Assembly: GCF_053078305.1 (NCBI RefSeq)
Contig: NZ_CP166879.1
Reading direction: 5' to 3' (one strand)
DNA length: 64,000 nt
Shown: piece by piece, positions 57,001 through 60,000 of the stretch
Layout of the letters: each line of letters begins with the position of its first letter
Numbering within the stretch: the first letter of the stretch is position 1
Made by a program: the position numbers

Positions 57001-60000
57001 GATATCCTCCACTCTCCGACGCCGCCAGAATGACGGCGCGGTGGTTAAGCATGAGGCGAAATTTCTGCCGGGCGGTATTTTGTTGAGAGATGAGATACGT
57101 CAACTTCTCTTTCCGCTTTTTCGAGGCTCCATGCCGTCTGGAGACGAATCCATGAAGACGGAGTTCCACCCAGGACAGCAGCGAGACGAACAGCCATTTC
57201 AGGAGATATTGTCGCATTACCTGAAACCAGTCGCTGAACAGTGGAAGGCGCGACATCAAGCGCTCTTGCCAGTTCCCTGATTCCAATATTCTGATCTTCC
57301 AGAATATCAGCAATAATTTCTCCGGGATGAGGGGGGTTAAACATCGCCATTAGTGGTAATCCTCGTAGTTAAGAATATAAGCATCGCCGTTCCGAAACTC
57401 GAATGTGATTCTCCAGTTACCGGAGACGGTGACAGACCATGTATCGGATCTGTCCCCCTGCAACTGGTGCAGCCTGTACCCGGCAAGGTTAATATCATCA
57501 ATGATTTCAGCTTGATCTATTACCTGAAGGCGCGTTCTCAGGCGTTTAACGTGATTGGGATTTACGCCTGATGCATTTCCTGTTTCAAAGAAACGTTGAA
57601 GTCCTTTGTGTTTCCAGCTTTTTATCATGCTTGTTTCCTGTTGCGTTACGTGAATCATTATAGCGACTGTTGTGTAATGCGCAACGGTTGTTTGACAAAA
57701 ATAGGTATCCGGGATTATATTCTTCGCACGGTCGAGTTGACCGTCGGGATTCGAACCCCGGATAGAAACCGCGACAGAGACACGCCGCGAGCGTGTTTTT
57801 TATTGTCGTATGCACGCGCACATCTGAATTATGGTGGGGCGTATAGGGGAGCTGAAAAGCTCGCCGGTTGGTTTCCCGGTAGTTCGAACCCTGTACGTCT
57901 CACCACCCGATGATTCGAACCTAACGGTGGTGATAGTTTAGAAACCACTCGAGGGCGTCATAATGACAACTCAAGTTTCTGTTGAAACACTCTCCACGAT
58001 TACTTACAAGCAGATCCCCGTTATCACTACCGAACTTTTGACGCACCTTTACGGCACAGAAGCTATTCGTATTCGCCAGAATCACCACGAAAACAAAGGT
58101 CGTTTCATTGAGGAAAAACACTTCTTCAAACTTGAAGGTGAAACTTTACGTGAGTTCAAGCACAGAGTAGCTTTTAACTACTCTGTGAAAATCGCCCGTA
58201 ATGTTCGCTCCCTCATCCTCTGGACAGAACGCGGCGCAGCCCGTCACGCAAAAATGCTCGAAACCGATCGGGCGTGGGAAGTGTTCGAAAAACTGGAAGA
58301 CTGCTATTTCAGCCAGAAAACTCCAGAACAACTTCAGCTTCCAGAATCAACGCTATCTATCAACTACCCTCTATCGTGGTTTTCTGAGCATCACCCATAC
58401 TCCATGATGAGCTATGTTGATCGAAAAACTCTTAACCTGGACGTTTCTGTGCTCTTCGATATGCCAAGCCCAACTATGCGCATCCTCAACGAGCTACACA
58501 GCAAGGGCTATAACGTTGACGCCGCTGTCGCCGAATTTAACGCCTTCAAGCATCTGACGGAAGAAATGCGCCGTACTCTACAGGATATTTCAAGACTGTC
58601 AGATCGAAATTCCCGAAAAGGCTTCTCGTTAAGCCTGTAACTTCCCCTACCATCCCCGACATCCCGTCGGGGTTTTCATATCTGGAGAAAAAATTTGAAA
58701 CAGATCGCTTTCTACAGGCGTTCTGGAAGGCCCGGTGCCTTCCGTGGGTTAAAAGAGCGCGTCACCTGGATGATTCAGTCTCGTGGTCGTCCTGTTACTG
58801 GCAGTGAAATAGCAGAGAAATTTGGTGTTTCACTTTGCGAGTTCAACAAGGTAGCTCGCGGCCTGACAAAGGGCAGTAAGGTTGTGAAAATAAAGGCTTC
58901 AGAACCATTCACCACAGACACCGGAATCGTTGATCGCTTTTTCTCCCTCGAATCAAATCCTCGTCGTGATACACCTCGCTCACGCAATGCCGTTCCTCCA
59001 TTCAGTCGCAGAAGCCGTGAACACGCAGCAAAAAACTGCCGCGAGGAATACGAGCAAAAGGCCAAACGCCGTCGCCGACTGATTAAAGCAGGACTTTACA
59101 TTGATGAGTTTGAAAACGCGCTATGACGAAAAAATACACCCTCATTTACGCAGATCCACCATGGACATTCCGCGACAAAGCAACCGATGGTCAACGCGGT
59201 GCAAGTTTTAAATATCCGGTCATGAACCTTCTCGATATCTGCCGCCTCCCGGTATGGGAACTGGCAGCCGATAATTGCCTGTTGGCTATGTGGTGGGTGC
59301 CTACACAACCACTTGAAGCATTGAAGGTTGTAGAAGCGTGGGGCTTTCGTCTGGTGACGATGAAAGGATTAACCTGGAACAAATGCGGGAAAAGACAGAC
59401 CGACAAGCTGGTCATGGGTATGGGTAGCACCACTCGCGCTAACAGCGAAGACTGCCTTTTTGCAGTGAAAGGAAATCTGCCCGAACGCATTAACGCCGGA
59501 ATAATCCAGTCATTCACTGCACCACGCCTTGATCACTCCCGCAAGCCGGATATGGCTCGAGAAAAACTTGTGCAACTTCTTGGCGATGTTCCCCGGATAG
59601 AACTGTTCGCCCGCCACACCTCGCATGGATTTGATGTATGGGGTAACCAATGCGGCACACCATCCATTGAGATGGTTCCGGGTATTGTTAAATTTCTGGA
59701 GAAAACCAATGAGCGAAAAAACGACGTTGACAAAGGCATCACCAGTTGAATTAAGGCAGTGTCTGGAAATCGCAAATCAACTTGCCAGAAGTGGAATACG
59801 ATTTGTTCCAATCCCGATTACAGCAGATGCAGAACTTCATCTGTTTGGTGAAATTCTTTCCCGAAAGCTGGATGAACTGGAAAAGCTGGTAGAAGAAGCT
59901 GACACCTCACTAACCGTATAACAGCCCCACCGACATTAAAATATCAGGAGAAAAAAATGAACGCAGTGCTCACAGAATTGAACAAATTAGGAAAAGCATC

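Follow-up and report, generated by a model that had tools for sequence, protein, structure and literature searches.

A probable Rts1-type HigBA operon with two predicted operators in a lambdoid Stx-type prophage, and the replacement of its toxin gene in related phages

What a toxin–antitoxin pair does inside a prophage, and how it is controlled there, is the question raised by the higBA locus of a 64,000-nucleotide stretch of DNA (contig NZ_CP166879.1 of NCBI RefSeq assembly GCF_053078305.1; the whole stretch is called the window below, and positions are counted from its first letter). According to annotated relatives, the setting was a lambdoid Stx-type prophage integrated at wrbA, in which the plus strand corresponds to the early-left direction. 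The locus was most probably an intact type II toxin–antitoxin operon that belongs with Rts1 HigBA and that constitutes a self-contained accessory cassette with a promoter of its own, antisense to the early-left operon. The two genes and the site of translation initiation were as follows.

57350..57628, minus strand: higB, 92 amino acids, starting MIKSW; by family assignment the toxin, a ribosome-dependent mRNA endonuclease of the RelE fold
57045..57350, minus strand: higA, 101 amino acids; by family assignment the helix-turn-helix (Xre-type) antitoxin and autorepressor
57636..57639, minus strand: Shine-Dalgarno motif AGGA, read from the sequence, 7 nt upstream of the higB ATG

An earlier note, made from the sequence alone, had placed a higBA module at these coordinates; both open reading frames were found there, and the family matches of their products to HigB and HigA (Pfam, TIGR02607 and PDB) bore the proposal out. 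The pair had been described as convergently oriented, which holds only relative to the left neighbour gene. The two genes themselves were co-directional on the minus strand, with the toxin gene first and a one-base overlap of the higB stop and the higA start (TAATG). About 110 of 120 related loci, taken from viral and genome collections, had the toxin-first order with HigA adjacent. A longer higB reading frame from 57658 was rejected; its start lies inside the -10 hexamer, MIKS is the start in all homologues, and the RefSeq model is the short one. Both proteins already carry the names HigB and HigA in RefSeq; the family is well studied and recognised by automatic annotation pipelines, and this locus is one of its uncharacterised members.

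The toxin assignment was evaluated via profile and structure comparisons. HigB matched Pfam PF05015 (HigB-like toxin) at 1.4e-21, with 77.2 bits against a cut-off of 27 and over profile positions 1-91 of 91. The closest solved structure was Rts1 HigB (PDB 4MCT, E 3e-32), to which the protein aligned without gaps and with 56 of 92 residues identical (61%). In this alignment, H54, N71, R73, D90, Y91 and H92 were the same in both proteins. His54, Asp90, Tyr91 and His92 of Rts1 HigB are critical according to mutagenesis and kinetics, and Arg73 acts at the scissile phosphate (PMC5027501). Judging from the alignment, HigB retains every catalytic residue of the Rts1 enzyme.

The antitoxin was identified just as clearly. 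HigA matched the HigA equivalog TIGR02607 with 88.4 bits against a cut-off of 47.7, and Pfam HTH_3 at 4.9e-10 over residues 14-65. The best solved match was HigA of E. coli CFT073 (PDB 2ICP, E 8e-28, residues 1-89), for which the structures (2ICP and 2ICT) are of the antitoxin alone. Rts1 HigA (4MCX) was matched at E 1e-19, with approximately 45% identity. Arg40, the sole base-specific DNA contact in the structure of Rts1 HigA with its operator (PMC12266136), was conserved in the HigA of the window. Moreover, the ratio of nonsynonymous to synonymous substitution rates (dN/dS) against a relative with 95% protein identity (L009) was 0.07 for higB and 0.07 for higA; therefore, both genes have been maintained by selection.

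Upstream of higB, the promoter TTGCGC-N16-TATAAT proposed in the earlier note was found on the minus strand, and two operators were predicted around it.

57657..57662, minus strand: -10 hexamer TATAAT, read from the sequence; aligns with TATAGT of the Rts1 hig promoter
57679..57684, minus strand: -35 hexamer TTGCGC, 3 of 6 positions matching the consensus; inside the left half of O1, with a 16-nt spacer to the -10 hexamer
57669..57685, minus strand: predicted operator O1, GTTGCG-CATTA-CACAAC; 5 of 6 arm pairs complementary; lies over the -35 hexamer, in the same place as O1 of Rts1
57640..57656, minus strand: predicted operator O2, GATTCA-CGTAA-CGCAAC; 3 of 6 arm pairs complementary; abuts the -10 hexamer and covers the likely transcription start, in the same place as O2 of Rts1

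The inverted repeat said to bracket this promoter, GTTGCG at 57640-57645 and CGCAAC at 57680-57685, does exist. Its two arms are in reality the outer half-sites of two 17-bp operators, with O1 contributing its left arm and O2 its right arm. The idea that the repeat stands out within the window alone was dropped, as pattern counts were at or below the shuffled expectation: GTTGCG-N5-CGCAAC with at most 3 mismatches gave 28 matches in the window where 32 were expected, which is no excess, and a degenerate form of the 17-bp pattern was also at background there. As far as can be judged from sequence, the significance of the repeat comes only from the comparison with homologues. In the homologous upstream regions, two 17-bp palindromes with 6-bp arms and a 5-bp centre recurred 29-30 bp apart, one at approximately -57 to -59 and the other at approximately -28 to -29 relative to the ATG. 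A two-site score, which counts arm complementarity only and takes two sites 29-30 bp apart, was calculated for 97 distinct homologous upstream regions and for 1,940 control 100-mers taken from these loci. Among the homologous upstream regions, 39% scored 9 or more, compared with 5.8% of the controls; for 10 or more, the corresponding values were 16% and 0.5%.

The conservation of the individual positions was explored in an alignment of 20 homologous upstream regions; for the five relatives examined at 64-77% HigB identity, synonymous divergence was saturated or above 2. TTGC in the left arm of O1 and G-AAC in the right arm of O2 were invariant, and AACA in the right arm of O1, parts of the -10 hexamer and G-T-C in the left arm of O2 were conserved in at least 90% of the regions. 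The centres and flanks of O1 and O2 were variable. The half-sites of the promoter were conserved across genera. In the Rts1 hig promoter, whose O1 and O2 have been footprinted and crystallised, two operators overlap the -35 and the -10 hexamers, each of which is bound by a HigA dimer and is sufficient for repression (PMC12266136). The hig promoter of an IncT plasmid with a HigB identical to that of Rts1 was laid out in the same way as that of the window and read ATTGCA-CATCG-TGTAAT over the -35 hexamer, followed by TATAGT and ATTACA-CACCA-TGTAAT. The published contact bases of Rts1 (C-30/G-24 and G-8/C-2) fall within or next to the proposed 17-bp sites, but off-centre. The half-sites of the two clades differed by purine-for-purine changes (GTTGCG vs ATTACA), which suggests RTTRCR-N5-YGYAAY as an operator consensus for the predicted sites of the family.

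The locus resembled Rts1 HigBA, the founding host-inhibition-of-growth system, which is carried by a Proteus vulgaris plasmid (PDB 4MCT, 4MCX, 4YPB and 6CHV), in having the toxin gene first, a 1-nt overlap, a HigB of 92 amino acids, a HigA with a helix-turn-helix and Arg40, and a 17-bp palindrome over the -35 hexamer with another right after the -10 hexamer. It differed from Rts1 in its half-sites (GTTGCG/CGCAAC rather than ATTACA/TGTAAT, purine for purine at three positions), in the spacing of O1 to O2 (29 bp rather than 30 bp) and in its position on a prophage next to an antirepressor operon rather than on an IncT plasmid. GraT-GraA of Pseudomonas putida (6F8S and 6F8H) shares its Pfam and structural family with the locus and was much more distant (E 7e-5 for the toxin and E 3e-12 for the antitoxin); the GraTA toxin drives its antitoxin off the DNA (PMC12266136). 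If the locus works like Rts1, a HigA dimer, alone or carrying HigB, would bind O1 and O2 and repress the operon, and HigB would be neutralised by HigA. When HigA is not replenished, free HigB would enter the ribosomal A site and cleave mRNA at adenosine-rich codons, and growth would stop.

Several results weigh against an intact and autoregulated operon. The -35 hexamer of the higBA promoter was weak, with 3 of 6 consensus positions, and because of this the promoter was not listed by the consensus promoter scan. The two-site score of the window was 8, which was reached by 32% of the control 100-mers and is within background. O2 was a poor palindrome (3 of 6 arm pairs) with a substitution at 57651, where the window and one viral contig identical over the region had T and all other close copies had C. 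With C, the left arm of O2 has 4 complementary positions rather than 3, and close relatives accordingly scored 9 against the 8 of the window. The T at 57651 could loosen autorepression. Binding of HigA at O1 and O2 is predicted by analogy with a protein to which it is about 45% identical and whose half-sites differ (GTTGCG vs ATTACA). The terminator scan and folding gave no clear intrinsic terminator 3' of higA; the sole terminator-like hit of the scan was on the minus strand at 57769-57790, inside isrK, a small RNA described below. No experimental study of this prophage allele turned up in the literature search. Finally, no defence model of PADLOC-DB 2.0 matched HigB, and HigA gave only weak generic helix-turn-helix hits (best E 3e-4). 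The structure found directly after the higA stop was the following.

57020..57038, minus strand: GC-rich hairpin without a U-tract; fold energy -20.7 kcal/mol, z -1.76; left edge of the transposable cassette

A 2.5-kb query that spanned this region matched 2,238 E. coli records. A block from approximately 57019, comprising the hairpin, higA, higB, both promoters, isrK, C4 and the start of the antirepressor gene ant, was near-identical in a Stx1a prophage (L003). In that prophage the block lay in the early-right arm, between the replication genes and ninB, whereas the copy in the window was in the early-left arm. A higA of this type was present in 67 of 5,426 complete E. coli genomes and the whole pair in only 21; among 46 phage records, the whole higBA pair was found in one. 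In the remaining higA copies, higB and its promoter had been replaced. In Stx2a phages of the PA2, PA8, VT2phi_272, phi346 and phi349 type (L002 at 3845-4823 and L127-L134 among them), a gene of the ParD family (ribbon-helix-helix) and a gene for a 90-residue lipoprotein stood in their place; the last 23 nt of higB were retained, and identity to the window resumed inside the spacer of the isrK promoter. In this replacement, a TGTTG-ACGA-CAACA repeat overlapped the -35 hexamer of the isrK promoter. The 90-residue product was considered as a hidden ParE-like toxin and rejected: it had no Pfam or PDB match, its single-sequence AlphaFold model was poor (predicted local distance difference test, pLDDT, 56), and a signal peptide with a lipobox cysteine marked it as a small lipoprotein.

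A second replacement was found in two viral contigs (L135 at 1972-2719 and L204 at 1975-2722). An unrelated toxin-first pair was present there, and 12 nt of higB were retained upstream of an intact higA. Judged by eye, the 144-residue reading frame of this pair reads like a RelE-type toxin and the 106-residue reading frame has a C-terminal half that looks like a helix-turn-helix. The breakpoints of the two replacements were different; therefore, higB was replaced independently at least twice, and higA was kept both times. The orphan higA was intact in 8 of 10 copies and had a stop at codon 10 in the other 2. In a 2025 study, ParD and HigA of phi346 and phi349 were listed as orphan antitoxins of unclear meaning (PMC12502783). 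The higA genes of PA2, PA8, VT2phi_272, phi346 and phi349 were 99% identical to that of the window and in the same slot, and higB was gone. The comparison explains the "orphan HigA" of Stx2a phages as a remnant of higB replacement, with the window as the intact ancestral form. The slot between the gene to the left of higA, which encodes a 245-residue protein of an antirepressor family, and the isrK-C4-ant unit was thus an exchange point for toxin–antitoxin cassettes in Stx-type prophages.

The unit on the other side of the higBA promoter was transcribed divergently and was composed of the following elements.

57692..57721, plus strand: promoter TTGACA-N18-TATATT, 11 of 12 positions matching the consensus; drives isrK, C4 and the antirepressor gene; conserved in all copies of the cassette
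57728..57801, plus strand: isrK-type small RNA, Rfam RF01394, 53 bits against a gathering threshold of 50; its terminal stem and U-run form its own terminator
57827..57910, plus strand: C4 antisense RNA, Rfam RF01695, 70 bits against a gathering threshold of 45; fold z -4.66
57963..58640, plus strand: ORF6N-domain antirepressor (PF10543 at 1.3e-18; phrog_1760 anti-repressor at 2e-121), the gene under the control of both RNAs

This arrangement of an antirepressor controlled by RNA is as in immI of P1/P7 and in Gifsy-1, for which the mechanism of IsrK has been described (PMC4825925). The unit of the window matched both Rfam families, followed by an antirepressor, like isrK-orf45-anrP of Gifsy-1 and c4-icd-ant of P1/P7 immI, and its loop and target co-varied as in c4. 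Three alleles (the window, L001 and L003) differed in the C4 loop and, correspondingly, in both of its target sites, with three-base changes CGA, GAG and GGA; the target/C4 pairs of the three alleles were ATTCGAAC/GTTCGAAC, ATTGAGAC/GTCTCAAC and ATTGGAAC/GTTCCAAC. These matching changes look like distinct immunity specificities. To our knowledge, no toxin–antitoxin pair has been described upstream in the P1 c4-icd-ant model. A four-codon leader reading frame, ATG ATT CGA ACC TAA (MIRT*), was observed at 57910-57924, where it overlapped the downstream C4/isrK target site, 39 nt 5' of the antirepressor start; it was also present in other alleles with altered codons. It may correspond to the upstream reading frame that translational coupling requires in the Gifsy-1 IsrK system. 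Motifs of the GGATTCGAACC type to the right of the module had been considered as tRNA remnants. ARAGORN found no such remnants, and the Rfam matches there were the isrK and C4 RNAs.

Abortive infection and stabilisation had both been suggested as possible roles in the earlier note. The favoured reading, which is less certain than the assignment of the operon itself, is that higBA serves selfish stabilisation, as an addiction cassette that moves together with the isrK-C4-antirepressor unit beside it. It is favoured because the cassette moves as a unit between prophage positions and because an addiction module is expected to decay by losing the toxin while keeping the antitoxin. Exclusion of other phages is a possible side benefit. 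That anti-phage defence (abortive infection or superinfection exclusion) is instead the main function is a serious alternative and compatible with addiction, and we hold it to be rather unlikely. In such a case, an incoming phage would shut off host transcription or trigger the loss of HigA, and the freed HigB would stop translation before the invader finishes its cycle. This would suit an accessory prophage gene with its own promoter that falls in the PHROGs class moron/host takeover, and also a slot in which different toxin–antitoxin cassettes are swapped, a feature of defence hotspots. A preprint reports defence against phage by toxins of the HigB family within toxin–antitoxin–chaperone systems (bioRxiv 10.1101/2024.02.24.581848). 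The PADLOC results given above, with HigB unmatched and HigA hit only by generic profiles, argue against defence as well. A decaying or silent remnant in which the inverted repeat arose by chance is highly implausible. The chance-level count of the repeat in the window, the weak -35 hexamer, the loss of higB in related phages and the stop codon in 2 of 10 orphan higA copies are consistent with it, but both frames are intact with all catalytic residues and a dN/dS of 0.07, and the half-sites of the promoter are conserved across genera.

The divergent promoters raise one more possibility, namely, that HigA or the HigB-HigA complex acts from O1 as a Mnt-like regulator of the antirepressor operon and thereby ties the state of the toxin–antitoxin pair to prophage induction. 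With O1 occupied, and with RNA polymerase at either of the back-to-back promoters excluding it from the other, expression of the antirepressor would become dependent on that state, and early-left transcription running antisense through higBA at induction would lower HigA and release HigB. The -35 hexamers of the higBA and isrK promoters were 7 bp apart and their predicted starts approximately 78 bp apart, and the polymerase footprints would overlap; O1 covered -43 to -59 of the isrK promoter and ended 6 bp upstream of its -35 hexamer. Furthermore, higBA was linked to the isrK promoter in every close copy and at two different prophage positions, although this linkage may just reflect a single capture event. 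The replacement variant puts a ribbon-helix-helix gene of the ParD family in the same divergent position, with TGTTG-ACGA-CAACA over the -35 hexamer, a layout that resembles mnt/ant of phage P22. With respect to the Mnt/Arc control of the P22 immI-like region, the divergence of a repressor gene from the ant promoter was matched in the window, but an operator over the core of the ant promoter was not: the pattern search gave no O1/O2-like site in the isrK promoter core (57686-57727). Moreover, distant higBA homologues had the same operators without an antirepressor neighbour, and therefore autoregulation alone explains the operators. On balance, this regulatory role is improbable, more so than defence, and a stabilising cassette remains the preferred explanation.

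The surrounding genes placed the locus in the early-left arm, as the earlier note had stated: the gene order was that of a lambdoid Stx-type prophage, with higBA itself antisense to the early-left operon. The order in the early-left direction was the cI-like repressor, HicB/HicA, an AntA-type antirepressor, gam/recT/exo, ea22-like genes, a DUF551 gene, the 245-residue antirepressor-family gene, higA/higB (opposite strand), the ORF6N antirepressor, an MT-A70 methylase, xis, int and wrbA. The genes that bear on the locus were as follows.

45468-46226: cI-like repressor gene of the LexA family
46633-47228, minus strand: HicB/HicA, directly downstream of the cI-like repressor gene
56265-57002: 245-residue antirepressor-family gene, left of higA; phrog_1726, E 7e-95

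HicAB at 46633-47228 is the other pair that makes higBA the second toxin–antitoxin system of the prophage, a count on which the earlier note was right. Its placement of higBA between ea-type genes and the antirepressor was correct for the right side, where the antirepressor lies, and has to be amended on the left, where the immediate neighbour is the gene at 56265-57002. This gene had no Pfam match; it belongs to a PHROG antirepressor family, and therefore higBA is flanked on both sides by antirepressor-type genes. The pair was antisense to the early-left operon, convergent with its left neighbour and divergent from the right-hand antirepressor. Within 48757-49524, an Rfam match to sRNA-Xcc1 (66 bits) was found just upstream of the AntA-type antirepressor, whose approximately 90 C-terminal residues were almost identical to those at the end of the ORF6N antirepressor (57963-58640). 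These common C-termini indicate that the prophage antirepressors have a shared C-terminal module and different N-terminal domains. Elsewhere in the window, the STnc100 small RNA family was represented by two copies in tandem at 37847-38333 on the minus strand (199 and 139 bits). At 60151-60212, at least 6 copies of the 9-bp tandem repeat AGTGCAGCC encoded a PVQ repeat in a DUF1627-type gene (59957-60355), the length of which varied among related prophages.

The higBA pair itself is a routine annotation, and a modest added value comes from the operator model, the explanation of the orphan antitoxins and the exchange slot. The operator model, with its two predicted 17-bp sites, connects many HigBA loci that are as yet uncharacterised with the Rts1 paradigm and yields a prediction of how specificity has shifted. 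The window offers an explanation for the orphan HigA, and for the ParD, of clinical Stx2a phages as what is left after replacement of higB. If the regulatory role considered above were true, the repeated cassette swaps would be swaps of induction regulators and not only of addiction modules. Antirepressors affect induction and hence Shiga toxin output, so that cross-talk with a toxin–antitoxin system at this place, if true, would be medically relevant.

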